A stretch of DNA of 64,000 bases from Mustelus asterias (lineage: Eukaryota). Below, one piece after another: positions 2,790 through 61,910 of the stretch. Both the position numbers and the translations under genes were made by a program. The notes below the pieces were generated by a model. The model saw only the letters and a list, made by a program, of their open reading frames with translations. It did not search any database and was not told the DNA's origin. The first letter of the stretch is position 1, and every line of letters starts with the position of its first letter. The stretch covers positions 124,001-188,000 of the forward strand of contig NW_027590645.1 of NCBI RefSeq assembly GCF_964213995.1, written 5' to 3'.

Positions 2790-3275
2790 AAACCCCTAAG
2801 CTAATCCCAATTGCCCGCATTTGGCCCATATCCCTCTACACCCATCGTACCCATATAACTTCTCTAAGCTTATTAAAGACAAAATTGTACCCGCCTCTAT
2901 GACTACCTCTGGCAGATTGTTCCAGACACTCACCACCCTCTGTGTGAAAAGATTGCCCCTCTGGACACTTTTGTATCTCTCCCCTCTCACCTTAAACCTA
3001 TGCCCTCTAGTTTTAGACTCCCCTACTTTTGGGAAAAGATATTGACTATCCAGCTGATCTGTGTCCCTCATTATTTTATAGACCTCGATAAGATCACCCC
3101 TCGGCCTCCTACGCTCCAGAGAAAAAAGTCCCATCTATCCAGCCTCTCCTTATAACTCAATCCATCAAGTCCCGGTAGCATCCGAGTAAATCTTTTCTGC
3201 AATCTTTCTAGTTTAATCATATCCTTTCTATAATCGGGTGACCAGAATTGCACACAGTATTCCAAACGGGGTCTT
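2790..3275 (-). mobile_element. CR1 LINE 3' fragment (frameshifted)
   Basis: RPRLEYCVQFWSP…GLFSLERRRPRGDLIEVYK…TRGHRFKV, homologous to the CR1 ORF2 C-termini in this window. Confidence 0.9.
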
Positions 3276-3679
3276 ATTGTTCTGACTTTGCCAACAGGGC
3301 TGTGGAATTTATTGGATAGATCTTCCAAAGGCCAGCACAGACATACTGAGCTGAATGGTTTCCATCCATCTGTATCATTCTGTAAAACAATGAATATTCA
3401 GAATCAGGATGAGACAGAACGAGAGGAACCAGTGACTGTGCGATTGAATCCAGACAGAGTCAGCACCATCAGGGAAAGGGAAAGAGAGGAGACAGTGTAA
3501 AAGCTTCCCACAGGAGAATTTGAGTAATTTAACATAGCAGATCATCAATTCGCAATAATTTGCGTTTTTTTAAAATTAGTTTATCTCAATACCTAACAAT
3601 GTTATTTTATATTCACTGTTTGAGGTTACAATGGCGCTGCTGTTAACCACCATTCCTTGCGGTTGTGAAAGTACCCTAT

Positions 3680-8399: not shown

Positions 8400-8875
8400 A
8401 ATCCTGAACATTTTTTTTCTCTTCAGATAATTATCCAGTTGTGTTTTGAAATCTTGTTTGAACCTTCCTCCTCCCCACACTGGGTCAGTGCACGCCGGGT
8501 TCTAACCACTCACTCTGGAAACGGGATTTCCTCAAATCACCATTGCTTATTTCACAAATCACCTTTAACCTGTGTCCTCTGCTTCTTGACCTTTTTGCCA
8601 ATCAGAATAGTTTCTTCCGATCTTCTCTGTCCAAATCCCTCTTGATTTTGAATATTTCTATCGAACCTCCTCTTCTCTATAGAGATCAGCTCCAGCTTTG
8701 CCAATCTACCCTCATAACTGAAGTTTCTCATCCCTGGAATCAGTCTCATGAATTTTATCTGCATCCTCTACAATGTCTTCACCTCCTTCCTATCGCGATC
8801 TATCGGAGTTGGCCACAATGCTCCAGTTGAGGCTGAACCAATGCTTTATTTTGGTTCATCACAACTTCCTTATTA
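8400..8875 (-). mobile_element. Decayed CR1 3' fragment
   Basis: Minus-strand translation IKFMRLIPGMRNFSYEGRLAKLELISIEKRR; ALVQPQLEHC. Confidence 0.65.
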
Positions 8876-10131
8876 TTCTCGGGTATTTGGACATCAGCCT
8901 TTCTCCTGTCAATATACAGCTGCCTTATGGGGTTGTGGTCACATTTGAAAGAGCTGCCCATCAGCCCCACTCCCCTCCCCTTTCCCCAGAGCCCTGTTAA
9001 CTTTACCTTCAACTGGAGATCCAATTCACTTCGGAAAGATGTATCTGAATCTGCTTCCATCCCCTTTCAGGCAGAACGTTCCAGAACAGAATTAATTGAG
9101 AAATGAATGCCCCCAGTGGATTTTTCCCAATTATTTGATGCGACATATTTAATTGTTGATCTTCTGTTAAATACATTTCCAGAGCAGATTTAAGGGAAAA
9201 TGTTCATGACATCTTGGAGATGAACCACACGAAATGCTGTCTGTTTGAAACAAAGTTGATTTATTTGATGCATTAAAATATTAAACTCCAGCCACATTAC
9301 AGGAGTTAACATCAGCAAAAAAAAAGTCAGAATTAATATGATTCAATCCTAAATATGATCAACAGCAGCAACAAAAGCAGAATCCAACTCCTCTAGAGAC
9401 TCTGTCTGAGAGTCAGTGCAGACTTGATGGGCTGAATGGCCTCCTTCTGCACTGTAGGGATTCTATGAAAAGTAAACTCAAGATTAAAATAAAGATTCTT
9501 CAGCTAGTCACTAATCAGCCTTTTCCATTTTCCTGAAGTCATCTTATAATTATTTATCTCCTAGATTTGATGAATTAAACATTATCTGCAATTGTATGAT
9601 AAATGATCAGTTTTATACAAATTAATGAATCATGTCTTACTTTATAGTTGGATAATGCAGTGACCAGAACTGTGCTCAGTATTCTAGCTGTGTTCTAACT
9701 CGTCTCTAACGTAATCTCCCTGCTCTTATATTCCAGGCCTCAGACAGGAAAGTGTCCCAAATGCCTCCTTGACCATCTGATCTACATGTGCAGCCATCTT
9801 CAGGGATCAGTGGATATGCACTCCAAAGTCCTTCTGTTCCTCTATAATTCTCAACATCATCCCATGTTCATTCCCTTGTCTTGTTTACCCTCCCAAATTC
9901 AATCTCTCATTGATCCAGATTGAATTCTACTTGCTATTTTTGTGTTGACTCACCCCCCAGTCCATTAATATCTTCCTGCTGTCCACAGCTTTATTCCTCA
10001 TTGTCAACCATGGGAGCTACTTTTGTATCAGATGCAAACTTAGTAATAATTTTCCACACAGTTGAGCCGAAATTATTGACACATACCAGAAAACTGTGGA
10101 CCACCACTGGAAACAGGCATCTTGGCATCAT

Positions 10132-13294: not shown

Positions 13295-16200
13295 TACTGG
13301 GGAAGGTGTGACCTCTATGAGAAGGATGGTCTACACCTGAATCGGAAGGGGACCAATATCCTGGGGGGTAAATTTGCTAAGGCCATGCAGGGAGGTTTAA
13401 ACTGATTCGGGGGGGGGGGGGGGAGGGATCCTGAGTAGTGGGGCTGAAAGTGAGGGATGCATGGATGGGGACTGCAATGCACGGCATTGCAGAGGTGAGG
13501 TGGAGCAGGGTTTGAAATGTGTATACTTCAATGCCAGGAGTATTCGCAATAAAGTGGGTGAACTTGCAGCGTGGATCAGTACCTGGGACTTCGATGTTGT
13601 GGCTATTTCAGAGACATGGATAGAGCAGGGGCAGGAATGGATGCTGCAGGTCCCGGGGTTCAAATGTTTTAGTCGAAGTAGGGAAGGAGGTAGAAGAGGG
13701 GGAGGGGTAGCATTATTGGTCAGAGATTGTATCACAGTGTCAGAGAGGAGGTTTGATGAGGACTTATCTGTTGAGGTAGTATGGGCGGAGATTAGAAATA
13801 GGAGAGGAGAGGTCACCCTGTTGGGAGTCTTTTATAGACCTCCTAAAAGTTCTAGAGAGGTTGAGGAAAGGATTGCGGAGTCAATCCTGCTTAGGAGTGA
13901 AAGTAATAGGGCAATTGTTATGGGGGATTTTAACTTTACTAATATTGACTGGAATTGTTATAGCTCTAGCTCGTTAGAGGGGTCAGTTTTTGTTCAAAGC
14001 GTGCAGGAAGGTTTTTTGACTCAGTATGTAGACAGGCCAACTAGAGGTGAGGCTATATTGGATCTGGTGCTGGGAAATGAACCAGACCAGGTGCTAGACT
14101 TGGAAGTTGGTGTGCATTTTGGTGATAGTGACCACAATTCGGTTACGTTCACCTTAGTGATGGAAAGGGATAGGCATGAACCTCGGGCCAGTGGTTTTAG
14201 CTGGGGGAAGGGTAATTATGAGGCTATTAGGAGAGAATTAGGAAACATAGGTTGGACTAGGAGATTACAGGGACTGGGAACGTCCGACATGTGGAGTTTT
14301 TTCAAGGAGCAGCTACTGCGAGTCTGTGATAGGTATGTCCCTGTCAGACAAGGAAGAATTGGTAGGGCTAGGGAACCGTGGTGCACCAAAAAAGTTTCTT
14401 TGTTGGTTAAAAAGAAAAAGGAGGCTTATGTTCGGATGAGACGTGAGCACTCGGGTAGTGCACTAGAAAGCTTTAGATTGGCTAGGAGGGAGTTGAAGAG
14501 CGAGCTTAGAAGGGCTAAAAGGGGACATGAGAAGACTTTGGCGGATAGGGTTAAAGAGAATCCTAAGGCGTTCTATAGGTATGTCAAAAACAGAAGGTTG
14601 GTTAGGGCAAGTTTAGGGCCAGTTATAGATGGCAGAGGGAAGTTATGTGTGGAACCGGAGGAGATTGGTGAAGCATTGAACCAATATTTCTCTTCGGTGT
14701 TCACGCAAGGGGACATGAATATAGCTGAGGAGGACACTGGGTTGCAGGGGAGTAGAATTGACAGTATTACAGTGGATAAGGAGGATGTGCAGGATATTCT
14801 GGAGGGTCTGAAAATAGATAAATCCCCTGGTCCGGATGGGATTTATCCAAGGATTCTCTGGGAGGCAAGAGAAGTGATTGCAGAGCCTCTGGCTCTGATC
14901 TTCAGGTCGTCGTTGGCCTCCGGTATAGTACCAGAAGATTGGAGGTTAGCGAATGTTGTCCCATTGTTTAAGAAGGGGAACAGAGACTTCCCCGGGAATT
15001 ATAGACCGGTGAGTCTCACTTCTGTTGTCGGCAAGATGTTGGAAAAAATTATAAGGGATAGGATTTATAGTTATTTGGAGAGTAATGAATTGATAGGTGA
15101 TAGTCAGCATGGTTTTGTGGCAGGTAGGTCGTGCCTTACAAACCTTATTGAGTTTTTTGAGAAAGTGACCAAGGAGGTGGATGGGGGCAAGGCAGTGGAC
15201 GTGGTATATATGGATTTTAGTAAGGCGTTTGATAAGGTTCACCATGGTAGGCTTCTGCAGAAAATGCAGATGTATGGGATTGGGGGTGATCTAGGATATT
15301 GGATCAGGAATTGGCTAGCGGATAGGAAACAGAGGGTGGTGGTTGATAGTAAATATTCATCATGGAGTGCGGTTACAAGTGGTGTACCTCAGGGATCTGT
15401 TTTGGGGCCACTGCTGTTTGTAATATTTATTAATGACCTGGATGAGGGTATAGTTGGGTGGATTAGCAAATTTGCTGATGACACCAAAGTCGGTGGTGTG
15501 GTAGACAGTGAGGAAGGGTGTCGTAGTTTGCAGGAAGACTTAGACAGGTTGCAATGTTGGGCCGGGAGGTGGCGGATGGAGTTTAATGCGGAGAAGTGTG
15601 AGGTGATTCACTTTGGTAGGAATAACAGATGTGTTGAGTATAGGGCTAACGGGAGGACTTTGAATAGTGTGGAGGAGCAGAGGGATCTAGGTGTATGTGT
15701 ACATAGATCCCTGAAAGTTGGGAATCAAGTAGATAAGGTTGTTAAGAAGGCATATGGTGTCTTGGCGTTTATTGGTAGGGGGATTGAATTTAGGAGTCGT
15801 AGCGTTATGTTGCAACTGTACACAACTCTGGTGCGGCCGCACTTGGAGTATTGTGTGCAGTTCTGGTCCCCACATTACAGGAAGGATGTGGAGGCTTTGG
15901 AGAGGGTGCAGAGGAGGTTTACCAGGATGTTGCCTGGTATGGAGGGGAGATCCTATGAGGAGAGGCTGAGGGACTTGGGATTGTTTTCGCTGGAAAGGCG
16001 GCGGCTAAGAGGGGATCTTATTGAAACATATAAGATGATTAGAGGTTTAGATAGGGTGGATAGTGATAGCCTTTTTCCTCTGATGGAGAAATCCAGCACG
16101 AGGGGGCATGGCTTTAAATTGAGGGGGGGTAGTTATAGGACTGATGTCAGGGGTAGGTTCTTTACCCAGAGAGTGGTGAGGGATTGGAATGCCCTACCAG

Positions 16201-16370
16201 CATCAGTTGTAAATGCGCATAGTTTGGGGGCGTTTAAGAGAGCCGTAGATAGATTCATGGACGAAAAGAAATTGGTTTAGGTTTTTTTTTGTAACTGGTC
16301 GGTGCAACATCGTGGGCCGAAGGGCCTGTTCTGCGCTGTAATGTTCTATGTTCTATGTTCTATGTTCTAT
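13295..16370 (+). mobile_element. 5'-truncated CR1 LINE (ORF1 tail plus intact ORF2), TSD CTATTG
   Basis: ORF1 end DGLHLN…GGLN*; ORF2 with EN and RT; (TATGTTC)n tail; CTATTG at 13289-13294 and 16367-16372. Confidence 0.95.
13461..16280 (+). CDS. CR1 ORF2: AP-like endonuclease plus reverse transcriptase
   Basis: NARS, ISETW, GDFN, SDHN endonuclease motifs; NYRPVSL, DFSKAFD, GVPQGSVLGP, FADD RT motifs; no stops. Confidence 0.92.
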   Translation: MDGDCNARHCRGEVEQGLKCVYFNARSIRNKVGELAAWISTWDFDVVAISETWIEQGQEWMLQVPGFKCFSRSREGGRRGGGVALLVRDCITVSERRFDEDLSVEVVWAEIRNRRGEVTLLGVFYRPPKSSREVEERIAESILLRSESNRAIVMGDFNFTNIDWNCYSSSSLEGSVFVQSVQEGFLTQYVDRPTRGEAILDLVLGNEPDQVLDLEVGVHFGDSDHNSVTFTLVMERDRHEPRASGFSWGKGNYEAIRRELGNIGWTRRLQGLGTSDMWSFFKEQLLRVCDRYVPVRQGRIGRAREPWCTKKVSLLVKKKKEAYVRMRREHSGSALESFRLARRELKSELRRAKRGHEKTLADRVKENPKAFYRYVKNRRLVRASLGPVIDGRGKLCVEPEEIGEALNQYFSSVFTQGDMNIAEEDTGLQGSRIDSITVDKEDVQDILEGLKIDKSPGPDGIYPRILWEAREVIAEPLALIFRSSLASGIVPEDWRLANVVPLFKKGNRDFPGNYRPVSLTSVVGKMLEKIIRDRIYSYLESNELIGDSQHGFVAGRSCLTNLIEFFEKVTKEVDGGKAVDVVYMDFSKAFDKVHHGRLLQKMQMYGIGGDLGYWIRNWLADRKQRVVVDSKYSSWSAVTSGVPQGSVLGPLLFVIFINDLDEGIVGWISKFADDTKVGGVVDSEEGCRSLQEDLDRLQCWAGRWRMEFNAEKCEVIHFGRNNRCVEYRANGRTLNSVEEQRDLGVCVHRSLKVGNQVDKVVKKAYGVLAFIGRGIEFRSRSVMLQLYTTLVRPHLEYCVQFWSPHYRKDVEALERVQRRFTRMLPGMEGRSYEERLRDLGLFSLERRRLRGDLIETYKMIRGLDRVDSDSLFPLMEKSSTRGHGFKLRGGSYRTDVRGRFFTQRVVRDWNALPASVVNAHSLGAFKRAVDRFMDEKKLV

Positions 16371-21859: not shown

Positions 21860-22400
21860 TATCTCCATCCTGGATTTTTTGCTGATTATTTTCAAGTTGT
21901 GTTCTGCAGTTACCAACCATCCTGCCAATGGATACAGTTTCTTCCTGTGTAGATTAAAACTCCTCAGAAGTGTCCACACCTCTATTAAATCACTTTTTAA
22001 CCTTCTCAGCTCTAAAGAGAACAATCCCAGCTTCTTCAGTCTCTCCACAGAACTGAAATCCCACATCCCTGATACTATTCTGGGAAATTTTCCCTGCATC
22101 CTCTCGAAGGCCTTGACATCTTTCCCAAAGTGAAATTTAGAACTCAGAATTTAACACTATTTCAGCTGAGGATTAATCCTTGATTTATAAAGATTCACAA
22201 TAACTGCCTTGCTTTTGTAATCCATGTCTCTATTAATAAACCGAGGACTCCATTAGCTTTATATTTAAACAGCTTGATCAACTTGTCCTGTCGCAGTCAA
22301 GCATTTGTATACATCCACTCCCAGGTCACAGTGTTCCTGCATTCTGTTTAAAGTTGTCCCATTTAGCTTATTCTGCCTCTCCACATTCTTCCTTCCAAAA
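21860..22400 (-). mobile_element. Decayed CR1 3' fragment
   Basis: SVERLKKLGLFSLELRRLKSDLIEV in ORF 21794..22099(-). Confidence 0.7.
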
Positions 22401-22712
22401 TTCACCATGGAATATGAATCACTTTGGGATGTTCTGAAAGGTTCTAAATGAACACAAGAAATTTATTTCTCTTTCACAGCTGATTTAAGGTTGTAGATTT
22501 TGCTTCAAAGAGTAAATAGGGATTGATTTCAGAGTTAATTATTTGACTGATCAGGAACAATTTCAGCTGGGAGTCAGTGAATTGAGAGGAAAGATCCCAG
22601 ACAGCGGTTCTTCAAGGTCCACAACAGGCCCAACAGTTCAATCAGATCCACTCTAAGCTCAGGAGAGCTCAACAACTCCACACACTGTCCACAGGGGAGT
22701 TCCCCTGCTGTA

Positions 22713-27849: not shown

Positions 27850-28560
27850 GCTTCGACCCTGCTGCCCCCAACAAACACGGTGTCCGTGCCTGCGCGCAAT
27901 TGCACATTGCCCCTTACAAAGATGCCGGCCGCACATGCGCACTGATGAACGTTGCCACCGACAGAATGGCGTCAGTCAGCCCAGGCCCAACACGACAAGT
28001 TGCGCCTCCAATTTGGTACCAACAGGGCGCCCGGGAAGTTATTTTCCGGGGTTTGGGTTTGAACAACATGTTTACGAAGCCTCTCCACCCACCCGCCACA
28101 TTCATCGCTCTCTGCGCGCCGCCCTTTACCTTGAACTGATCTCGGCTCCGAGTTAAAACCGACCGTCCGCCGCCATTACCCACACTGCGCATGCTTCAGC
28201 TCCCTCCCCCTGTTCACTCTGGTTGGAGGACCAGCCGCTCCCGCTCGGTCCTCCAGCCCCGCCCCCTTTTCCTATTGGTTCAGAGTCAATCAGTCCCCGA
28301 GCATTGTGACGTTGGGCATGCGCAGTGCGGCTCATGTCCAGGGACAGGCGCTTGTTTGTCTGATCTTCAGGCGGGAAGGAGGCGGATAAGCGGAGGCAGC
28401 GTTAGGGGCAGTGGGTGGGAGGGGAGGCTCCACACACCCAGTGGAGGCTTCAACACCCCCAATAAGGAACTAGCGGCACCGCCTCAACACCCAACACAAC
28501 GGCAGCTGCAGCACTTTCTCCCGGGGCCAGGCCCCAGTGGACAAATGTGGCTTCAGGAAG
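27850..28560. promoter_or_regulatory. Uninterrupted type-A bidirectional CpG promoter
   Basis: CpG island; tgcgcatgc (28187), ggttggaggaccagccgctcccgctcggtcctccagccccgcccc, cctattgg, gcatgcgcagtg; colinear with 13085-13294 + 16371-16500. Confidence 0.7.
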
Positions 28561-28609
28561 GAAATGCAGCAATGGGTTTGGTTTGATTTGATTTATTGTC
28601 ACATGTATT

Positions 28610-28975
28610 GAGATAATGGTTTACAGTTTACTTAACAAGAGTTTGAGGATTATCTGAAAGTAAATGGTATTGAGCATATAAAATCCGCATATCATCCATA
28701 AACCCATGGATTAGCTGAAAGATTTGAACAATTCTTGAAACATTCTTTAAAAGCTTCAAGAGAGCAAGGTTTGCTATCACATCATGTGAACATCTTTTTG
28801 TCCTCTTTTAGAAACACTACTTATGCGACTACCCAAAGTTCACCTGCATTACTACTCTTAAAGAGAAAGTTGAGGACTATGTTTATTATCTCGAGAAACT
28901 TCAGAAATTAGAGCGTCAACAGCAGTCCAAAATTGTGACGTGAAGGCAAAACTATGCTCATTTCAACAATGCTCA
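28610..28975 (+). mobile_element. Gypsy-type integrase remnant (continues at ~33344-33450)
   Basis: Translates KSAYHP*THGLAERFEQFLKHSLK…FRNTTYATTQSSPALLLLKRKLRT; after the CR1, KWIPAIVLAKTGP. Confidence 0.65.
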
Positions 28976-28983
28976 TTGTTCCA

Positions 28984-29072
28984 AGTGGGATAGCTTGATC
29001 TTGGTTTCAGATAAAGCTCGGCACAACATCGTGGGCCGAAGGGCCTGTTCTGTGCTGTACTGTTCTATGTTC
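28984..29072 (+). repeat. Copy of the last 89 bp of the adjacent CR1, placed at its 5' end
   Basis: Matches 33253-33341 with one mismatch and 53813-53900. Confidence 0.9.
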
Positions 29073-29449
29073 ACTGGAGCAAGCTGAGAGGGAGTGATTG
29101 GAGGCAGCAGTACTGGTGAGAGATTAATTGAATTGTTTATTTATTTCATTAGTCAGCTAGTGTGTGGTTTTTTTTGGCCTTTACTTTTGCAGTAGAATTT
29201 TAAGTTTAAAGTGAAAACTGGAAGTGGGCTGCTAAGGAGTCTGGGAAGGGTTTTTTAAGCGCGTGAAGTATAAAAGGTAGACTGCAGTATACAGCGGGCA
29301 GCGTCGGGAGCGGGCAGTGGAGTGAGTGGGAAGCAGAGTGTGAGCTATAAGGCTTTGGCTCACAGGGTTTAGGCAGAAAGGGCGAGCAGGGGTGAGTTTA
29401 AATTCACTTCTGCACTTTCTACCGGGTACTGGCAAGGTATCTAGAGGGG

Positions 29450-30373
29450 ATGGGTGTGCAGGCAGTGCTATGTTCCTCTTGCACTATGTTTGAGGTGAGG
29501 GACGACGACAGTGTCCCTGCTGATTACATCTGTGGGAAGTGCACCCATCTGCAGTTCCTCCAAAACCGTGTGAGGGAACTGGAGCTGGAGTTGGATGAAC
29601 TTAGGATCATTAGGGACGCAGAGGTGGCCATAGACAGAAGCTTTAGGAATACAGTTACTCCGAGGAATGAAAGCAGATGGGTGATGGTGAGAGGGGCTGG
29701 GAGGAAGCAGTCCGTGCAGGGATCCCCGGTGGTCGTTCCCCTTAGCAACAAGTATTCCGCTTTGGATACGGTTGAGGGGGATGACATAAGAGTGGTGAGC
29801 CGCAGTGAGAGGATCTCCAGCACTGTGTCCGTCTCTGTGGCTCGGGAGGGTAAGGGGCAGAGCGGGAGGGCAATAGTTATTGGGGACTCGTTAGTTAGAG
29901 GGATAGATAGGAGGTTCTGTGGCAGCAAAAGAGACTCACGGATGGTATGTTGCCTACCGGATGCCAAGGTCCGTGACGTCTCAGACCGTGTTTTCCGGAT
30001 TCTGAAGGGGGAGGAGAAACAGTCACAAGTCGTGGTACACATTGGTACCAATGACATAGGTAAGCGAAGGGACGGGGATTTAAAGCAGGAATTTCTGGAG
30101 CTGGGCTGGAAGCTGAGAGCCAAGACAAAACATGTGGTCATCTCTGGTACGTTGCCGGTGCCACGTGATAGCGAGTTGAGGAACAGGGAGAGAGTGCAGT
30201 TAAACATGTGGTTGCAGGGATGGTGTAGGAGGGAGGGTTTCAGATACGTGGATAATTGGAACACATTCTGGGGAAGGGGGGACCTGTACAAACAGGACGG
30301 GGTGCACCTGAACCAGAGGGGCACCATCCTAGGAGGGAAATTTGTTACGGCTCTTCAGGGGGGTTTAAACTAA
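29450..30373 (+). CDS. CR1 ORF1: Cys-rich zinc finger/leucine zipper plus SGNH-esterase domain
   Basis: CSSC…CGKC, LQNRVRELELELDEL, IVIGDSLVRG, HIGTND, DGVHLN. Confidence 0.9.
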   Translation: MGVQAVLCSSCTMFEVRDDDSVPADYICGKCTHLQFLQNRVRELELELDELRIIRDAEVAIDRSFRNTVTPRNESRWVMVRGAGRKQSVQGSPVVVPLSNKYSALDTVEGDDIRVVSRSERISSTVSVSVAREGKGQSGRAIVIGDSLVRGIDRRFCGSKRDSRMVCCLPDAKVRDVSDRVFRILKGEEKQSQVVVHIGTNDIGKRRDGDLKQEFLELGWKLRAKTKHVVISGTLPVPRDSELRNRERVQLNMWLQGWCRREGFRYVDNWNTFWGRGDLYKQDGVHLNQRGTILGGKFVTALQGGLN

Positions 30374-33267
30374 TTTGTCAGGGGAGTGGGAAAAGGAGTT
30401 GTAGTCCAGAAGTCAGTGAGGGTGGTGAGGTATTGAGGAAGGTATCAGGGTCAAGGGTGGGTACTGGTAGACAGGAAGGTGGGTTGAAGTGTGTCTACTT
30501 CAATGCAAGGAGCATCCGGAACAAGGTAGATGAACTTGGGGTGTGGATTGGTACTTGGGACTACGATGTTGTGGCCATTACGGAGACGTGGGTAGAACAA
30601 GGACAGGAATGGTTGTTGGATGTTCCGGGGTATAGATGTTTCACTAAGTGTAGGGAAGCTGGTAAAAGAGGTGGAGGAGTGGCATTGTTAATCAAGGATA
30701 GTTTAACGGCTGTGGAAAGGCACTTCGAGGGGGATCTGCACACTGAGGTAATATGGGCTGAGGTTAGAAATAGGAAAGGAGCGGTCACGTTGTTAGGAGT
30801 TTACTATAGGCCCCCAAATAGTAATAGAGATGTAGAGGAAGAAATTGCTAAGCAGATTATGGATATGTGTGGGGGTCACAGGGTAGTTGTCATGGGGGAC
30901 TTTAACTTTCCAAATATTGATTGGAACCTTTGTAGGTCAAATAGTTCGGATGGGGCAGTTTTTGTGCAGTGTGTGCAGGAGGGTTTCCTGACACAATATG
31001 TGGATAGGCCGACAAGAGGTGAGGCCACATTGGATTTGGTTCTGGGAAATGAACCAGGCCAAGTGTTAGATTTGGTTGTGGGAGAGCACTTTGGAGATAG
31101 TGACCACAATTCGGTGTCTTTTGTTATTGCAATGGAGAGGGATAGGGCCGTACGGCAGGGCAAGGTTTACAATTGGGGGAGAGGTAATTATGATGCGATT
31201 AGGCAAGAATTAGGGGGCATAAGTTGGGAACAGAAACTGTCAGAGAAAGGAACTAATGAAAAGTGGAACTTTTTCAAGGAACAAATACTGGATGTCCTTG
31301 ATAGGTATGTCCCTGTCAGGCAGGGAGGAAATGGCCGAGTGAGGGAACCATGGTTCACGAAAGAGGTGGAATGTCTTGTGAAAAGGAAGAGGGAAGCTTA
31401 TGTAGGGATGAGGAAACAAGGTTCAGATGGCTCGATTGAGGGTTACAAGTTAGCAAGGAATGAGCTGAAAAAGGGGCTGAGGAGAGCTAGGAGGGGACAC
31501 GAGAAGTCCTTGGCGGGTCGGATCAAGGAAAACCCCAAGGCTTTTTACTCTTATGTGAGGAATAAAAGAATGACCAGGGTGAGGTTAGGGCCGGTCAAGG
31601 ACAGTAGTGGGAACTTGTGTATGGAGTCAGTAGAGATAGGCGAGGTGATGAATGAATACTTTTCTTCAGTGTTCACCAAGGAGAGGGGCCATGTTTTTGA
31701 GGAAGAGAAGGTGTTACAGGCTAATAGGCTGGAGGAAATAGATGTTCGGAGGGAGGATGTCCTGGCAGTTTTGAATAAACTGAAGGTCGATAAGTCCCCT
31801 GGGCCTGATGAAATGTATCCTAGGATTCTTTGGGAGGCAAGGGATGAGATTGCAGAGCCTTTGGCTTTGATCTTTGGGTCCTCGCTGTCCACGGGGATGG
31901 TGCCAGAAGACTGGAGAATGGCGAATGTTGTTCCTCTGTTTAAGAAAGGGAATAGAAATGACCCTGGTAATTATAGACCGGTTAGTCTTACTTCGGTGGT
32001 TGGTAAATTGATGGAAAAGGTCCTTGGAGATGGGATTTACGACCATTTAGAAAGATGCGGATTAATCCGGGATAGTCAGCACGGATTCGTGAAGGGCAAG
32101 TCATGCCTCACAAATTTGATAGAATTTTTTGAGGAGGTAACCAAGTGTGTTGATGAAGGTAGGACAGTTGATGTCATATACATGGATTTTAGTAAGGCGT
32201 TTGATAAGGTCCCCCATGGTCGGCTTATGATGAAAGTGAGGAGGTGTGGGATAGAGGGAAAGTTGGCCGATTGGATAGGTAACTGGCTGTCTGATCGAAG
32301 ACAGAGGGTGGTGGTCGATGGAAAATTTTCGGATTGGAGGCAGGTTGCTAGCGGAGTGCCGCAGGGATCAGTGCTTGGTCCTCTGCTCTTTGTGATTTTT
32401 ATTAATGACTTAGAGGAGGGGGCTGAAGGGTGGATCAGTAAATTTGCTGATGACACCAAGATTGGTGGGGTAGTGGATGAGGTGGAGGGCTGTTGCAGGC
32501 TGCAAAGAGACATAGATAGGATGCAAAGCTGGGCTGAAAAATGGCAAATGGAGTTTAACCCTGATAAATGTGAGGTGATTCATTTTGGTAGGACTAATTT
32601 AAATGTGGATTACAGGGTCAAAGGTAGGGTTCTGAAGACTGTGGAGGAACAGCGAGACCTTGGGGTCCATATCCACAGATCTCTAAAGGTTGCCACTCAA
32701 GTGGATAGAGCTGTGAAGAAGGCCTATAGTGTGTTAGCTTTTATTAACAGGGGGTTGGAGTTTAAGAGCCGTGGGGTTATGCTACAACTCTACAGGCCCT
32801 TGGTGAGACCACATTTGGAATATTGCGTGCAGTTCTGGTCACCTCACTATAGGAAGGATGTGGAAGCGCTGGAAAGAGTGCAGAGGAGATTTACCAGGAT
32901 GCTGCCTGGTTTGGAGGGTAGGTCTTATGAGGAAAGGTTGATGGAGCTAGGGCTGTTCTCTCTGGAGCGGAGGAGGCTGAGGGGAGACTTAATAGAGGTT
33001 TATAAAATGATGAAGGGGATAGATAGAGTGAACGTTCAAAGACTATTTCCTCGGGCGGATGGAACTATTACAAGGGGGCATAACTATAGGGTTCGTGGTG
33101 GGAGATACTGGAAGGATATCAGAGGTAGGTTCTTTACGCAGAGAGTGGTTGGGGTGTGGAATGGACTGCCTGCAATGATAGTGGAGTCAGACACTTTAGG
33201 AACATTTAAGCGGTTATTGGATAGGCACATGGAGCACACCAGGATGATAGGGAGTGGGATAGCTTGA
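30364..33267 (+). CDS. CR1 ORF2 (endonuclease + RT), -1 frame to ORF1, no AUG before the endonuclease
   Basis: Same frame as ORF-track 30256..33267 (which uses a non-ATG start); NARS, ITETW, GDFN, SDHN, FADD motifs; first Met is inside the EN domain (KQIMDM). Confidence 0.88.
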   Translation, partial: FKLICQGSGKRSCSPEVSEGGEVLRKVSGSRVGTGRQEGGLKCVYFNARSIRNKVDELGVWIGTWDYDVVAITETWVEQGQEWLLDVPGYRCFTKCREAGKRGGGVALLIKDSLTAVERHFEGDLHTEVIWAEVRNRKGAVTLLGVYYRPPNSNRDVEEEIAKQIMDMCGGHRVVVMGDFNFPNIDWNLCRSNSSDGAVFVQCVQEGFLTQYVDRPTRGEATLDLVLGNEPGQVLDLVVGEHFGDSDHNSVSFVIAMERDRAVRQGKVYNWGRGNYDAIRQELGGISWEQKLSEKGTNEKWNFFKEQILDVLDRYVPVRQGGNGRVREPWFTKEVECLVKRKREAYVGMRKQGSDGSIEGYKLARNELKKGLRRARRGHEKSLAGRIKENPKAFYSYVRNKRMTRVRLGPVKDSSGNLCMESVEIGEVMNEYFSSVFTKERGHVFEEEKVLQANRLEEIDVRREDVLAVLNKLKVDKSPGPDEMYPRILWEARDEIAEPLALIFGSSLSTGMVPEDWRMANVVPLFKKGNRNDPGNYRPVSLTSVVGKLMEKVLGDGIYDHLERCGLIRDSQHGFVKGKSCLTNLIEFFEEVTKCVDEGRTVDVIYMDFSKAFDKVPHGRLMMKVRRCGIEGKLADWIGNWLSDRRQRVVVDGKFSDWRQVASGVPQGSVLGPLLFVIFINDLEEGAEGWISKFADDTKIGGVVDEVEGCCRLQRDIDRMQSWAEKWQMEFNPDKCEVIHFGRTNLNVDYRVKGRVLKTVEEQRDLGVHIHRSLKVATQVDRAVKKAYSVLAFINRGLEFKSRGVMLQLYRPLVRPHLEYCVQFWSPHYRKDVEALERVQRRFTRMLPGLEGRSYEERLMELGLFSLERRRLRGDLIEVYKMMKGIDRVNVQRLFPRADGTITRGHNYRVRGGRYWKDIRGRFFTQRVVGVWNGLPAMIVESDTLGTFKRLLDRHMEHTRMIGSGIA

Positions 33268-34049
33268 TCTTGGTTTCAGATAAAGCTCGGCACAACATCA
33301 TGGGCCGAAGGGCCTGTTCTGTGCTGTACTGTTCTATGTTCTAAGGAGATTGTTGAGCATGTAATTCTGTGACAAGTGAGAAATGGATACCAGCCATTGT
33401 TTTAGCAAAAACAGGACCTGAAATGGAGAGTTGAGCAAAGACAGCAGGATTGGAAAATGGTGATAGTTACAATGGTGTTTGTTCAGTTAGTCTCGTACCC
33501 ACATTTAAAGGAGAAAACACAATGTGACATATTTGACACACAGCAGTGGAGGTTTTATGTGGGGCACAAATGCCCAGGAAATCTCAACCTCAAGTAACCA
33601 ATTTTAAATGATTAATTCTAGTTTGGTTTACACACAATCTACGTATGTCACCTCAATATGATTTTATACTGAATTCTGGGGCTTACGTTCATCACATGAC
33701 TTGAACTTAGCACCACACTTAAATTGACAAGGGAGAAAGAACACATGGCCTTAAGGCAGCAATACGAGATGTCAAGGTTAAACAATTACTGGTACAAACT
33801 GTCTACCTTCCTCACAATTAAAATGATCAGTTCTGTTCTCGAAATTCAAAGTCTGTTGTATTACGTAATACAAATATTAAAATGTTCAGCCTTGTGCATT
33901 AAATTTAGTGCAGTTTAACTTCTGATGTTCAAGAAAAGTCACTTTATTTCACACTGCAACCATCTTTAATGTAGTAAGTTTAGAATGAAATTCTGTAATT
34001 AGCTTTTGTAACTCTTTAGTTTCTTTAATTTTTAATAAAAAGTGAAGTA

Positions 34050-47902: not shown

Positions 47903-48690
47903 TTAGACCTTTATAAGATCACCCCCAAGTCTCTTACGCTCCAGGGAAAAAACACCCAGTCCATCCAGCCTCTCCTTATACCTTAAACCATCAAGGCCTG
48001 GTAGCATGCTAGTAAATCTTTTCTGCACTCTTTCTAGTTTAATAATATCCTTTCTATAATCGGGTGACCAGAACTGTACACAGTATTTCAAGTGTGGCCT
48101 TACCAATGTCTTGTACAACTTCAACAAGACGTCCCAACTCCTGTATTCAATGTTCTGACCAATGAAACCAAGCATGCTGAATGCCTTCTTCACCACGCTG
48201 TCCACCTGTGACTCCACTTTCAAGGAGCTGTGAACATGTACCCCTAGATCTCTTTGTTCTGTAACTCTCCCCAACGCCCTACCATTAACTGAGTAAGTCC
48301 TGCCCTGATTCAGTCTACCAAAATGCATCACCTCGCATTTATCTAAATTAAACTGCATTTGCCATTCATCAGCCCACTAGCCCAATTGATCAAGATCCCG
48401 TTGCAATCTGAGATAACCTTCTTCACTGTCCACTGTGCCACCAATCTTGGTGTCATCTGCAAACTTACTAACCATGCCTCCTAAATTTTCATCCAAATCA
48501 TTATTATAAATGACAAATAAGAGTAGACTCAGCATTGATCCCTGTGGTGCACCACTGGTCACAGGCCTCCAGTTTGAAAAACAACCCTCTATAACCACCC
48601 CCTGTCTTCTATCATCCAGCCAATTTTGTATCCATTTAGCTACTTCACCCTGGATCCCATGAGATTTAACCTTATGCAACACCTCCCTTG
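47903..48690 (-). mobile_element. Decayed CR1 RT fragment
   Basis: SKFADDTKIGG…RPHLKYCVQFWSP with stops. Confidence 0.9.
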
Positions 48691-48784
48691 CTAAAGTCCT
48701 CATTAGATATCAATTCTACCTGTTACCGACATTTCACTGAACCAGTCTATATTTTCATCACCAGACTACACTGGCAGCAATGTC

Positions 48785-50007
48785 AACATCTTTCTAACTT
48801 GATTGATTCTATTGAGGAGCTGACAAGGGTGACCATTGAGGGTAGAGCAGTGGATGTTGTGTACATGGATTTTAGTAAGGCTTTCAACAAGGTCCCTCAT
48901 GGTCGCCTCATCCAGAAGATTAAGATGCATGGGATTCACGGTGACTTGGCCACTTGGATTCAGAATTGATTTGCCCATAGAAGTCAGAAAATAGTGGTGG
49001 AAGGGTGTTTTTCTGACTGGAGGTCTGTGACGAGTGGTGTTCTGCAGGGATCCGTACTGGGACCTTTGCTCTTTGGGATACATATAAATGACTTGGATGA
49101 AAACGTGGATGGGTGGGTTAGTAAGTTTGCAGACAACACAAAGCTAGATGGAGTTGTAGATAATGTAGAAGGTTGTCAAAGGATACAGTGGGATGTAGAT
49201 CAGCTGCAGATATGAGCGGAGAAATGGCAGATGGATTTTAATCCGGACAAGTGTGAGGTACTGCACTTTGGGAGATCAAATATTAAGGGTAAGTATCCAG
49301 TTAATGGCAGACCCCTGAACAGCAATGATCTTGGGGTTCAAGTCCAGAGCTCCCTGAAATTGGCCACACCAGTAGATAGGTGGTAAAGAAGGCAGATAGC
49401 ATGCTTGCCTTTATTGAGTCTGACATCCTTTATTCAGGATGTCATGTTGCAGCTTTATAAAACCTTGGTTAGACCGCACTTAGAATAGTGCATTCAATTC
49501 TGTTCGCTACATTACAGGAAGGATGCAGAGGATTTGGAGAGGGTGCAGAAGATGTTTACCAGGATGCTGCCTGGATTGGAGGGGATGAGCTATAATGAGA
49601 GGCTGGACAAACTAGGGTTGTTTTCTCTGAAACTGCAGAAATTGAGGGGAGAGCTGATTGAAGTCTATAAAATTATGAGAGACAGAGATAGGGTTGACAG
49701 TCAGAATCTTTTTCCCCAGAGTTAAAATTTCTAATACTAGGGGGCATGCACTTCAGGAGAGAGGGGGAAAGTTCAAAGGAGATGTGAGGGGCAAGTTTTT
49801 CCTTTGCACAGAGAGTGGTCGTGTCTGGAACACGCTGCAGCACAGGTGGTGGAGGCAGATACGATAGGGGCGTTTAGATAAACACATAAATATGCAAGGA
49901 ATATGGACCAAGGGCAGGCAGAACGGATAAGTTTAATTTGGCATCATGTTCGACCCAATATCGTGGGCTGAAGGGTCTGTTCCTGTGCTGTACTGTTCTA
50001 CGTTCTA
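48785..50007 (+). mobile_element. Decayed CR1 3' half
   Basis: DFSKAFNKVPHG, QGSVLGP, KFADN; tail ctgtgctgtactgttctacgttcta. Confidence 0.9.
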
Positions 50008-52351: not shown

Positions 52352-53900
52352 AGTCCCCTGGGCCTGATGAAATGTATCCTAGGATTCTGTGGGAGGCAAG
52401 GGATGAGATTGCAGAGCCTTTGGCGTTGATCTTTGGGTCCTCGCTGTCCACGGGGATGGTGCCAGAGGACTGGAGAATGGCGAATGTTGTTCCTCTGTTT
52501 AAGAAAGGGAATAGAAATGACCCTGGTAATTATAGACCGGTTAGTCTTACTTCGGTGGTTGGTAAATTGATGGAAAGGGTCCTTAGGGATGGGATTTACG
52601 ACCATTTAGAAAGATGCGGATTAATCCGAGATAGTCAGCACGGATTCGTGAAGGGCAAGTCGTGCCTCACAAATTTGATAGAATTTTTTGAGGAGGTAAC
52701 TAAGTGTGTTGATGAAGGTAGGGCAGTTGATGTCATATACATGGATTTTAGTAAGGCGTTTGATAAGGTCCCCCATGGTCGGCTTATGATGAAAGTAAGG
52801 AGGTGTGGGATAGAGGGAAAGTTGGCCGATTGGATAGGTAACTGGCTGTCTGACCGAAGACAGAGGGTGGTGGTGGATGGAAAATTTTCGGATTGGAGGC
52901 AGGTTGCTAGCGGTGTGCCGCAGGGATCAGTGCTTGGTCCTCTGCTCTTTGTGATTTTTATTAATGACTTAGAGGAGGGGGCTGAAGGGTGGATCAGTAA
53001 ATTTGCTGATGACACCAAGATTGGTGGAGTAGTGGATGAGGTGGACAGCTGTTGTAGGCTGCAAAGAGACATAGATAGGATGCAAAGCTGGGCTGAAAAA
53101 TGGCAAATGGAGTTTAACCCTGTTAAATGTGAGGTGATTCATTTTGGTAGGACAAATTTAAATGTGGATTACAGGGTCAAAGGTAGGGTTCTGAAGACTG
53201 TGGAGGAACAGAGAGATCTTGGGGTCCATATCCACAGATCTCTAAAGGTTGCCACTCAAGTGGATAGAGCTGTGAAGAAGGCCTATAGTGTGTTAGCTTT
53301 TATTAACAGGGGGTTGGAGTTTAAGAGCCGTGGGGTTATGCTGCAACTGCACAGGACCTTGGTGAGACCACATTTGGAATATTGTGTGCAGTTCTGGTCA
53401 CCTCACTATAAGAAGGATGTGGAAGCGCTGGAAAGAGTGCAGAGGAGATTTACCAGGATGCTGCCTGGTTTGGAGGGTAGGTCATATGAGGAAAGGTTGA
53501 GGGAGCTAGGGCTGTTCTCTCTGGAGCGGAGGAGGCGGAGGGGAGACTTAATAGAGGTGTATAAAATGATGAAGGGGATAGATAGAGTGAACGTTCAAAG
53601 ACTATTTCCTCGGGTGGATGGAGCTATTACAAGGGGGCATAACTATAGGGTTCGTGGTGGGAGATACAGGACGGATATCAGAGGTAGGTTCTTCACGCAG
53701 AGAGTGGTTGGGGTGTGGAATGGACTGCCTGCAGTGATAGTGGAGTCAGACACTTTAGGAACATTTAAGCGGTTATTGGATAGGCACATGGAGCACACCA
53801 GGATGATAGGGAGTGGGATAGCTTGATCTTGGTTTCAGATAAAGCTCGGCACAACATCGTGGGCCGAAGGGCCTGTTCTGTGCTGTACTGTTCTATGTTC
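52352..53900 (+). mobile_element. 5'-truncated young CR1 (same family as 29073-33343), TSD TATTAATC, nested in a SINE inside a ZNF intron
   Basis: Nearly identical to 31795-33341; TATTAATC at 52341-52348 and 53901-53908; open 484-aa RT ORF 52372..53826. Confidence 0.95.
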
Positions 53901-54689
53901 TATTAATCCAGAAACTTAGCTGATGTTCTGGGGACCCGGGTTTGAATCCTGCCACGGCAGATGGTGGAATTTGAATTTGAAAACAAAATCTAGAATTAAG
54001 AATCTACTGATGACCATGAAACCATTGTCGATTGACCAAAAAACCCGTCTGGTTCATTAATGTGCTTTAGGGAAGGAAATCTGCCGTCCTTACCCAGTCT
54101 GGCCTACATGTGACTCCAGAGCCACAGCAATGTGGTTGACTCTCACCCAGCTTCTGAAATGGCCGAGCGAGCCATTCAGTTCAAGGGCAATTGGGGATGG
54201 GCAATAAATGCTGGCCCAGCCGGCAATGCCCGTGTCCCAAGGATGAATAAAAAACAACATCAGACACGTCTCTGTCCGATATTAGTTTACTGTCCCCTTT
54301 AATATATTTCAGAAATTAGATGGGCACATGAAGGAAATAAACTTGCAGGGGAAAGGGAATATAGAAAGGGAATGGGACTGACTGGATTGTTCTACAGAGA
54401 GTCGGCATGGATTCGAGTTACTGAATGGACTCCTTCTGCGCTGTAATGACTCAATGAGTGAAAATATATAACATAGCTTCAGTGCTACATTACAAAACAA
54501 GAAATAATAATAAACGTACTTTGTTACAGAACCATAAATATTATACCAAATCTACTATATAACAACACAAGGCATATCTCTGTCCTATATTAATTTATTG
54601 TCCTTTTAAATGTCAGCCATCACCAGGGGAAACCAGCCCTTTAATTGTGAACATTAGGAAAGGGACCTTTTAGCCAGACAAATCAATGT

Positions 54690-56939: not shown

Positions 56940-57240
56940 GTAAAGTAAAGTTTATTTATTTGTCACAAGTAGGCTTACATTAACAATGCAATGATGTTAC
57001 TGTGAAAATCCACTAGTCGCCACACTCCGGCGCCTGTTCAGGTACACTGAGGGAGAATTTAGCATGACCAGTTCACCTAACCTGCACATCTTTGGACTGT
57101 GGGAGGAAACCGGAGCACCCGGAGGAAACCCACGCAGAACCGGGGAGAATGTGCAAACTCCACACAGACAGTGACCCAAGCCAGGAATTGAACCCGAGTC
57201 TCTGGCGCTGTGAAGCAGCAGTGCTAACTGCAGTGCCACT
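56940..57240 (-). mobile_element. HE1-like SINE, tail type B, nested in a decayed CR1 (~56760-57785, +)
   Basis: SINE motifs; flanking CR1 translation LLQLYKVLARPYLEDCEQFWSP. Confidence 0.8.
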
Positions 57241-57969
57241 GTGGTTGGAGTATATGAGTAGGGAAGTCTTGCTACAACTGTACAAGGTACTGGCGAGACC
57301 ATATCTGGAGGACTGTGAGCAGTTTTGGTCTCCTTATTTCAGGAAAAATATTATTTCATTGGAGGCAGTTCACAGTAGATTCACTTGGATTATCCCCGTT
57401 ATGGAGGGATTGTTTTATGAGGAAAGTTTAAACAGGTTGGGCCTCTCCTCATTGGAATTTAGAAGAATGAGAGGTGATCTCATTGAAGCATATTGGATTC
57501 TTAAGGGACTTGAGAGGGTAAATGCTGAGCGGATGTTTCCTCTCATGGGAGAGTCTGGGACCAGAGGGCACAGTCTCAGAATAAAAGGTGCCAATTTAAG
57601 ACTGAGATCAGGAGCAATTTCTTCTCCCAGAGGGTTGAGAGTCTTTGCAAGTCCTTGCCACAGAGAGCTGTGGGGGCAAAGCCCTTGTGTATATTTTTGA
57701 TCAATAAGGAAATCAAGGGTTACGGGAAAAGGGCAAGAAAGTGGACATGAGGAATGTCAGATCAGCCATGATCCTATTGAATGGGTGACATTCAATCCCT
57801 TCCCTGCAGGACATCAGTGAATCAATTGGGTTTTTAATGACACTCCAGAATTTTCATGGTCACTTTTACCTAGTGCCGGCCCCAGAAATGACCAGATTCA
57901 TTCCGCTCAATTTCACAACCTGCCTTTGTGTTTTTGTGGGTTCTCTCTCACATTTGTTTTCTTTTAAAT

Positions 57970-60864: not shown

Positions 60865-61910
60865 AATAATTAAGAACAGAAGGAGGCCACTCGGCCCCTC
60901 AAGCCTGTTCCGCCATTCAATAGGATCGTGGCTGATCTGATTGTAACCTCAACCCAACATTCCTGCCCACTACCCTCACCAATAATCTTCCATCTCCTTG
61001 TTAATCAGGAGACCACCTTGCTCTTCTTCAAAATATTCCAAGATTCTTCTTCCTCTGCCTTTTGAGGAAGAGAGTTCCAAAGATCCATGATCCTCTGAGA
61101 GAAAACACTTCTCCCTATCTCTGTCTGAAACACATTTTTAAACAGTGTCTCCTTGTTCAAGATTCTCCCACAAGAAAAAAAAATCCTTTCCACATCAACC
61201 CAGTCAATAGCCCTCAGAAACGTAAAAGGTTTCAATCAAGGCCCCTCTTACTCTTCTAAACTCCAGTGGCTACAAGCCCAGATTCTCCAATCTTTCCTCA
61301 TAAGACAACCTGCCAATTTCTGGTATTAGTCTGGTAGACATTCTCTGAACTGCTTCCAATGCATTTACATTTTCCTTAAATAAGGAGTTCAATACTTTAA
61401 CAACACTCCAGATGTGGTCTCACCAGTGTCCTGTCTGACTGAAACATAAACTCACTCCTTTTGTAACCACTTTCCTCACAATAAACAATGACATTCTATT
61501 AACTTTCCTGATTACTTGCTGTACCTGCATTCCACCCTTTTGTGATTCATGTATTAGGACACCTCTGAATCTCAGAGCTCTGCAATCTCTCACCATTTAA
61601 CGTTTTTTTTAAAATTTGGCAGAAATTCCTGCCAAAATTGATAATTCCATATTTGCCCACGTTATACTCCATTTGCCAAATCTTTGCCCACTAGCTGAAC
61701 TTATCTACATCCCTTTGTGGCCTCCTTACATCCTCTTCACACTTACTTTTCTACCTTTGTGTCCTCAGCAAATTTAGCGACCATGCTTGCATCCAAGTCA
61801 TTTATATAAGTTGTTAAAAGTAGAGGTCCCAGTTCTGATCGCTTTGGCACATCACTCGTCACATCCTGTCAACCAGATAAAGATCCATGTGTGCCAACTC
61901 TGTTTCCCGT
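60865..61910 (-). mobile_element. Decayed CR1
   Basis: FSQRIMDLWNSLPQKA; 3'-UTR stem gatcagccacgatcc…aatggcggaacaggct. Confidence 0.7.

Follow-up and report, generated by a model that had tools for sequence, protein, structure and literature searches.

How is the second open reading frame (ORF2) of a CR1-type long interspersed element (LINE) translated? CR1 is a dominant LINE of birds, reptiles and sharks, and the question is raised by a full-length, two-ORF CR1-type element at 29073-33343 (+) of a 64,000-nucleotide (nt) stretch of Mustelus asterias DNA (NCBI RefSeq assembly GCF_964213995.1, contig NW_027590645.1, positions 124,001 to 188,000 of the forward strand; this whole stretch is "the window", and its own numbering is used throughout). 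The first frame, ORF1, ends in the codons GGG GGT TTA AAC TAA, which puts T_TTA_AAC into the X_XXY_YYZ register of the ORF1 0 frame (Table 1), and U_UUA_AAC is the slippery heptamer of coronaviruses. ORF2 lies one base back relative to ORF1, in the -1 frame, and is open through the heptamer, its stop-to-stop frame covering 30256-33267. Its first in-frame ATG is at 30859, at codon 126 from the endonuclease start and downstream of the NARS and ETW motifs, and the junction has neither a UAAUG nor an AUG next to the ORF1 stop. A G-tract, GGGGAGTGGG, which we call the G-box, follows downstream. A sequence-only reading of this locus had noted the register of the heptamer, the open -1 frame, the late ATG and the G-tract, all of which we find in place, and had proposed that a frameshift fuses ORF1 to an ORF2 lacking an AUG. 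Judging from the comparisons of related copies presented here, a programmed -1 ribosomal frameshift at the CR1 junction, giving an ORF1-ORF2 fusion, is likely.

There are seven in-register X_XXY_YYZ heptamers in the 1272 codons of the element, and T_TTA_AAC is present once; one at the last position by chance is therefore unlikely but not impossible, and it is conservation that decides. We assembled 265 loci (L001-L265) from the same genome and from public contigs. The own-genome loci came from matches to the window DNA, to ORF1, to a second CR1 subfamily in the window, and to four divergent ORF1 proteins, the latter used because searches with the window DNA or ORF1 returned only 98-99% copies, uninformative on conservation; a fifth divergent protein query returned 20 loci, with no new lineage among them. 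Forty lower-ranked loci were picked by hand for diversity, and 55 public loci were reached through peptide patterns far from the heptamer. The junction was located with a profile of the ORF1 C-terminus minus its last six residues, which matched 235 of the 265 loci; 226 of these were distinct, and 198 had a stop at the canonical place. Since the copies are not independent and the two DNA queries included the heptamer, the conservation tests were run on lineages. When sequences were clustered by the 180 nt preceding the last three codons, 24 clusters resulted, with a median between-cluster identity of 48% at the nt level. Three of them were one subfamily and were merged, which left 22 lineages; 11 come from this genome, and the other 11 are metagenome loci, called bird-like because the tail of their ORF1 is similar to that of the named bird protein P0108. 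Each lineage is represented by one natural copy, picked on linker length and absence of stops and not on the heptamer, and the tree comprises 21 lineages, L137 being excluded for an internal frameshift. Viral contigs yielded no CR1 locus, L170 being an unrelated esterase, nor did any of them match the heptamer-stop-G-box pattern, and there was nothing useful among the matches in prokaryote genome contigs.

TTTAAAC is present in 196 of the 198 distinct loci with a canonical stop. Leu is preceded by a codon with a final T in 197 of them, which encodes Gly, Arg, Thr, Ser, Ala, Cys, His or Asn, and the stop that follows is TAG (101 loci), TAA (77) or TGA (20). When lineages are considered, the wobble T before Leu is found in all 22 with a variable amino acid (background T at four-fold sites, 22%), the Leu codon is TTA in all 22 (background, 13% of 235 Leu codons), and the Asn codon is AAC in 21 (background, 39% of 94 Asn codons). 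On the tree of 21 lineages the third bases of the heptamer change 0, 0 and 1 times, compared with 2-10 times (median 6) for 91 control columns. Synonymous variation at the heptamer is not free, in keeping with the earlier proposal, and the heptamer is conserved far beyond coding need. A protein-level account, in which Leu-Asn is required at the esterase C-terminus and its codons are shared by descent or chance, has on its side a terminal Asn that is invariant in 28 of 28 proteins (alignment A1, full-length homologues chosen by hand). It is largely refuted, and we give it hardly any credence: equally invariant upstream Gly, Asn and Leu residues show mixed codon use across the 22 lineages, other invariant Leu, Asn and Gly residues nearby undergo 3-10 synonymous codon changes on that tree, and the residue before Leu can be any of eight amino acids with its third base fixed. 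A second, overlapping heptamer singled out in the sequence-only reading, G_GGT_TTA, is indeed in register in the window (30361-30367), but it is kept in only 5 of 22 lineages and is ruled out as the shift site. At the protein level, 65 of 73 ORF1 homologues with a scorable tail end in Leu-Asn-stop (122 were fetched, the others being truncated or not matching the motif); the named ones come from sharks, rays, an eel, a mormyrid, a sturgeon, frogs, turtles, lizards and the kittiwake.

The -1 frame is also constrained downstream of the heptamer. Stops were counted in 159 copies from 18 lineages, with lineage weighting, without selecting copies for openness, and with the expectation taken from the other frames. 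The linker from the shift site to the endonuclease contains 2.7 -1-frame stops in 994 codons (0.3%), compared with 69.5 expected, and the portion before the first AUG contains 0.7 in 549 codons, compared with 42 expected. The 50 codons upstream of the heptamer contain 58 in 1100 (5.3%), and the nearest upstream -1-frame stop is no more than 15 nt away in 15 of 19 lineages. A frame that is closed upstream of the heptamer and open downstream of it indicates that the entry of ribosomes into ORF2 takes place at the ORF1 stop or immediately after it. Linkers vary between lineages in sequence and in length (modal values of 92-347 nt) while the frame is kept, ORF2 being in -1 in 17 of the 19 lineages with the endonuclease in reach; the other two are decayed copies, and for one of them a sister copy in -1 exists. 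Within the window's own family, 54 of 58 sister copies have the -1 frame open, and in 53 of these no AUG precedes the endonuclease. The description of ORF2 as AUG-less thus holds for this family but is not general, as only 5 of 16 open-linker lineages, the window's included, reach the catalytic motifs without an AUG. Near the ORF1 stop, the lineages share no conserved start or near-cognate codon. Four of 21 sequencing runs, three of them only guessed to be RNA and X6 not covering the junction, revealed no joint at the junction; a 1757-nt contig of X1 spans it, although contigs cannot show a single transcript, and we do not count these runs as evidence.

Between the stop and the G-box lies a 7-nt spacer of variable sequence. 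The box itself is well defined: positions 11-15 after the heptamer are G in 20, 20, 20, 21 and 18 of 21 lineages, positions 18-20 are G in 19, 21 and 19, and GGGG-NNN-GGG is exact in 16 of the 21. Three of these positions are third codon positions in the -1 frame, two of them in Gly codons, and those two codons are of the GGG type in 21/21 and 19/21 lineages, versus 36% GGG in the ORF2 of the window; with its third positions fixed in this way, the box looks to have been selected as RNA. The sequence-only reading had pointed out that RNA G-quadruplexes can stimulate -1 frameshifting. A G-quadruplex stimulator as such is not supported by the comparison: four runs of three Gs are present in only 2 of 20 lineages, and the conserved feature is a two-run box at a fixed distance. 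Four runs of two Gs occur in 7 of 20 lineages, and the lineage of the window has neither arrangement, only the two conserved G-runs. A G4Hunter-type score of at least 1.2 is reached in 18 of 20 lineages, and equally high scores are found in 10 of the 59 remaining blocks from the window's lineage. Going by the number of G-runs, a minority of lineages could form a complete quadruplex within the molecule. A search of 13 elements for a long-range pairing partner of the G-box found none common to all. One candidate, C-rich and located at the conserved PLSNKY motif ~650 nt before the ORF1 stop (near 29725), ranks in the top four partners in 6 of the 13, with modest energies; we treat the pairing of this Pro-coding site as a matter of composition.

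TTTAAAC and the G-box might also serve as a non-translational signal for an ORF2-only RNA, whether an internal promoter with a GC box, a splice branch and acceptor, or a packaging or reverse transcription signal. TTTAAA is TATA-like, GGGAGGG-like boxes are bound by promoter factors, and in lineages ending in TAG, TTTAAACTAG resembles a branch point and acceptor. However, a DNA or splice signal needs neither a single codon register nor a tie to the opening of the -1 frame at that very place. Moreover, an ORF2-only RNA would be without an AUG in five lineages, and a splice site would have to manage with no AG in the TAA and TGA lineages (97/198 loci) and no pyrimidine tract. We consider a signal of this kind very improbable.

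Under a programmed frameshift, the ribosome would pause on UUA-AAC with the stop adjacent and the G-box ahead, these two being the presumed source of the pause. A minority of ribosomes would slip back one base with tRNA-Leu and tRNA-Asn and read on through the linker, producing a fusion of ~1272 amino acids, while most would terminate at the ORF1 stop to give free ORF1 protein (ORF1p). The ratio of ORF1p to ORF2 protein (ORF2p) would be fixed in this manner, as it is for Gag and Gag-Pol. Tandem slippage is an established mechanism of -1 frameshifting, and it corrects the junction peptide originally read from the sequence: Leu-Ile-Cys-Gln-Gly stands, but it would not be preceded by Phe-Lys, since tandem slippage would give the 0-frame Leu-Asn first and no Phe-Lys-Leu would be made. 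The G-box is probably an element that binds protein or engages in G-G interactions, and not a hairpin.

Several observations weigh against a frameshift at this junction. In contrast to viral -1 frameshift sites, no canonical stem-loop or pseudoknot stem was detected 5-9 nt downstream of the heptamer (pseudoknots were not modelled explicitly), and a local hairpin 3' of the heptamer was tried and rejected, with a z of -0.59 in the window and a mean z of +0.13 in 20 lineages, none below -2. A G-quadruplex at the junction is unproven. The representative of one lineage, the decayed L125, has TTTACGA instead of TTTAAAC. Reading by eye the 28 loci dropped for lack of a canonical stop, we found the heptamer altered or deleted in four; in seven both heptamer and stop are present and ORF1 is broken upstream, in 11 the heptamer is present and the stop mutated, five end before the site, and one is unrelated. 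The DNA compared is that of this genome and of the bird-like metagenome loci, whereas for the fish, frog, turtle and lizard elements the comparison was of proteins alone. The search for longer fused proteins, a weak test, produced no clean fusion of ORF1, endonuclease and reverse transcriptase (RT) in seven matches, which look like gene-model chimeras. Finally, an AUG is found at or before the endonuclease start in 11 of the 16 open-linker lineages (10 have it within the linker, and one has it as the first codon of the endonuclease). Its position in the linker is scattered, lying two codons after the stop in four bird-like loci, and a UAAUG overlap is present in 2 of 21 lineages; all these lineages could also reinitiate.

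Papers are cited here by their PMC numbers, and what we attribute to them applies to the portions of their text that were available. How LINEs translate ORF2 has been described as an open question (PMC3894237). L1 and SART1, the experimentally studied LINEs, which like CR1 have a bicistronic RNA, are reported to use a reinitiation-like coupling (PMC2881922, PMC5009743), and in both the translation of ORF2 depends on that of ORF1 (PMC2881922, PMC3894237, PMC5009743). This too counts against a frameshift, and the ORF2 of CR1 might similarly be made as a separate protein by termination-reinitiation, independently of AUG where there is none, with the heptamer and G-box aiding termination or holding the 40S subunit. 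In addition to the linker AUGs, UGGGA occurs at +17-21 in 7 of 21 lineages, resembling the termination upstream ribosomal binding site (TURBS) motif of caliciviruses. TURBS, however, acts upstream of the stop, and the CR1 G-box is downstream of it. Reinitiation also leaves unexplained the perfect X_XXY_YYZ register, the invariant wobble T and the stop-free -1 frame from the heptamer to AUGs up to 215 nt away, and it would have to work with no conserved start or near-cognate codon. L1 and SART1 make a separate ORF2p, whereas the CR1 junction has a slippery site in place of a conserved start codon. We therefore regard termination-reinitiation as improbable, if less so than a non-translational signal, and continue to favor the -1 frameshift.

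The CR1 junction resembles those of coronaviruses and of retroviral gag-pol in heptamer class, in register, and in having a structural ORF upstream and a polymerase ORF in -1 without its own start. In contrast to retroviral gag-pol, CR1 is an element without long terminal repeats and without a protease, and a fusion would probably stay uncut. [quoted passage not shown] The two differ in that the motif of PRRSV is rich in C and has nsp1beta and PCBP bound to it (PMC7939443), whereas the CR1 motif is G-rich and the proposed shift is to the -1 frame only. Among LINEs, a review figure legend states that ORF2 of the Dictyostelium elements TRE5-A and TRE3-A requires a -1 frameshift (PMC5911963), and a frameshifting LINE is thus not unheard of. 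These are two-ORF, APE-type LINEs like CR1, but they are amoebozoan and of another lineage, and no slippery site or stimulator is described for them in the text available (PMC5911963), whereas CR1 has the heptamer and G-box from sharks to the bird-like elements.

The closest solved structure to the ORF1 esterase is the homologous esterase of ZfL2-1 ORF1p, which has been treated as representing the CR1 clade (PDB 4C1B; PMC3905857). The Leu-Asn tail of CR1 ORF1 lies outside the region aligned to it, and frameshifting is not mentioned in the available main text of that paper; CR1 is not mentioned in the first 300,000 characters of PMC5009743. Our literature search, whose text did not extend to the 1997 CR1 papers, found no report of a CR1 slippery site. 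The 1997 turtle CR1 paper is said to describe a short overlap of ORF1 and ORF2, and for this reason a passing suggestion of frameshifting is quite possibly, if not probably, in print. The CR1 recoding signal is real and strongly conserved, and it is unreported for CR1 in the literature that was searched.

The window contains a second occurrence of the signal, in a 5'-truncated copy of another CR1 subfamily that spans 13295-16355; loci L091-L115 belong to this second subfamily. In this subfamily the G-box has grown to an unstable run of 10-14 Gs, and the linker measures 103-109 nt between copies, its modal length of 104 nt corresponding to the -1 frame; changes in G-run length break the -1 frame in 9 of 20 copies, that in the window included. 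Many copies of this subfamily are apparently 5'-truncated ~100 nt upstream of the junction.

The coordinates of the element and its signals are collected in Table 1. ORF1 has an N-terminal CX2C-X16-CX2C motif followed by a C-terminal esterase of the SGNH/GDSL type and the Leu-Asn-stop tail; in the window it is one codon short compared with sister copies (AAT near 30325). The element is placed in the CR1 clade on the basis of its domain content, the homology of its ORF1 to turtle, lizard and bird proteins, and its tail. The features of the clade are present, with an APE endonuclease and RT in ORF2, an SGNH esterase in ORF1 and a short 3' untranslated region (UTR) with a microsatellite tail, and tails of this type are typical of CR1. 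The best 40 of 1821 own-genome candidates are the window element and 39 copies at 98%, an identity that marks a young family. Among named ORF1 homologues the closest come from sharks and rays, and another CR1 subfamily of the same genome is matched at 92-93% by a catshark protein.

Table 1. Features of the CR1-type element and of the second junction in the window (window coordinates).
Feature	Position	Strand	Remarks
5' UTR	29073..29449	+	5' end approximate; 24/58 sister loci start matching at 29068-29072
ORF1, 307 amino acids, ATG at 29450, TAA-ended	29450..30373	+	PF13472, E 2e-12; PDB 4C1B, E 4e-42
Slippery heptamer T_TTA_AAC, ORF1 0-frame register	30364..30370	+	
ORF1 stop, directly 3' of heptamer	30371..30373	+	TAA in window; TAG, TAA or TGA in relatives
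G-box (G4-5 N2-3 G3), candidate frameshift stimulator	30381..30390	+	starts at 11th base after heptamer
-1-frame linker, 38 codons, shift site to endonuclease	30370..30483	+	without stop, without AUG
ORF2 body: APE endonuclease and RT	30484..33267	+	PF03372, PF00078
Short 3' UTR, TTCTATG-type microsatellite tail at end	33268..33343	+	
Heptamer and TGA, second CR1 subfamily copy, 5'-truncated	13396..13405	+	~70% DNA identity

Directly before the 5' end of the element, head to tail with it, is an 89-nt copy of the family's own 3' end (28984-29072), identical to 33253-33341 at 88 of 89 positions; upstream of 29040, only 2 of 58 sister loci match. This arrangement fits either template jumping by the RT or an integration event in the tail of a pre-existing copy. 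The host site is a decayed gypsy-like integrase remnant (28560-28980 and 33345-33480) with in-frame stops on both sides, and no clear target-site duplication was seen around the insertion. A 5'-truncated, 97% copy of the same young family lies at 52352-53902, and decayed RT fragments are found at 2883-3277, 8560-10092, 21887-22420, 47906-49878, 57218-57696 and 61210-61901. Among database proteins, two shark-type CR1 ORF1 sequences are deposited as Pseudomonas aeruginosa (P0005) and Proteus mirabilis (P0093), names that probably reflect host contamination of bacterial assemblies. CR1 ORF1 pieces also appear inside host gene models (P0028, P0086, P0105, P0126 and P0127; RPS24, TMEM204, NUBP1, collagen XVI and mesothelin isoforms), either as annotation artefacts or through exonisation.

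The signal at the CR1 junction is compact, occupying ~40 nt. If it works as proposed, the G-box would represent either a natural stimulator of the G-G type, anticipated in a 2016 review that knew of none (PMC5009743), or a case of protein-switched frameshifting outside viruses. More tentatively, and on balance we think it unlikely, all jawed-vertebrate CR1 LINEs might make their RT as a Gag-Pol-like fusion through -1 frameshifting under the switch of a protein bound to the G-box, either a host G-tract binder or ORF1p itself; such a switch would mirror the arterivirus C-box mechanism in a cellular, G-rich form and would have been conserved since sharks and birds split. Should the frameshift prove true, the active CR1 protein would be a fusion of esterase, endonuclease and RT, current annotations of the CR1 ORF2 start would be wrong, and engineered or expressed CR1 proteins would need the ORF1 part.

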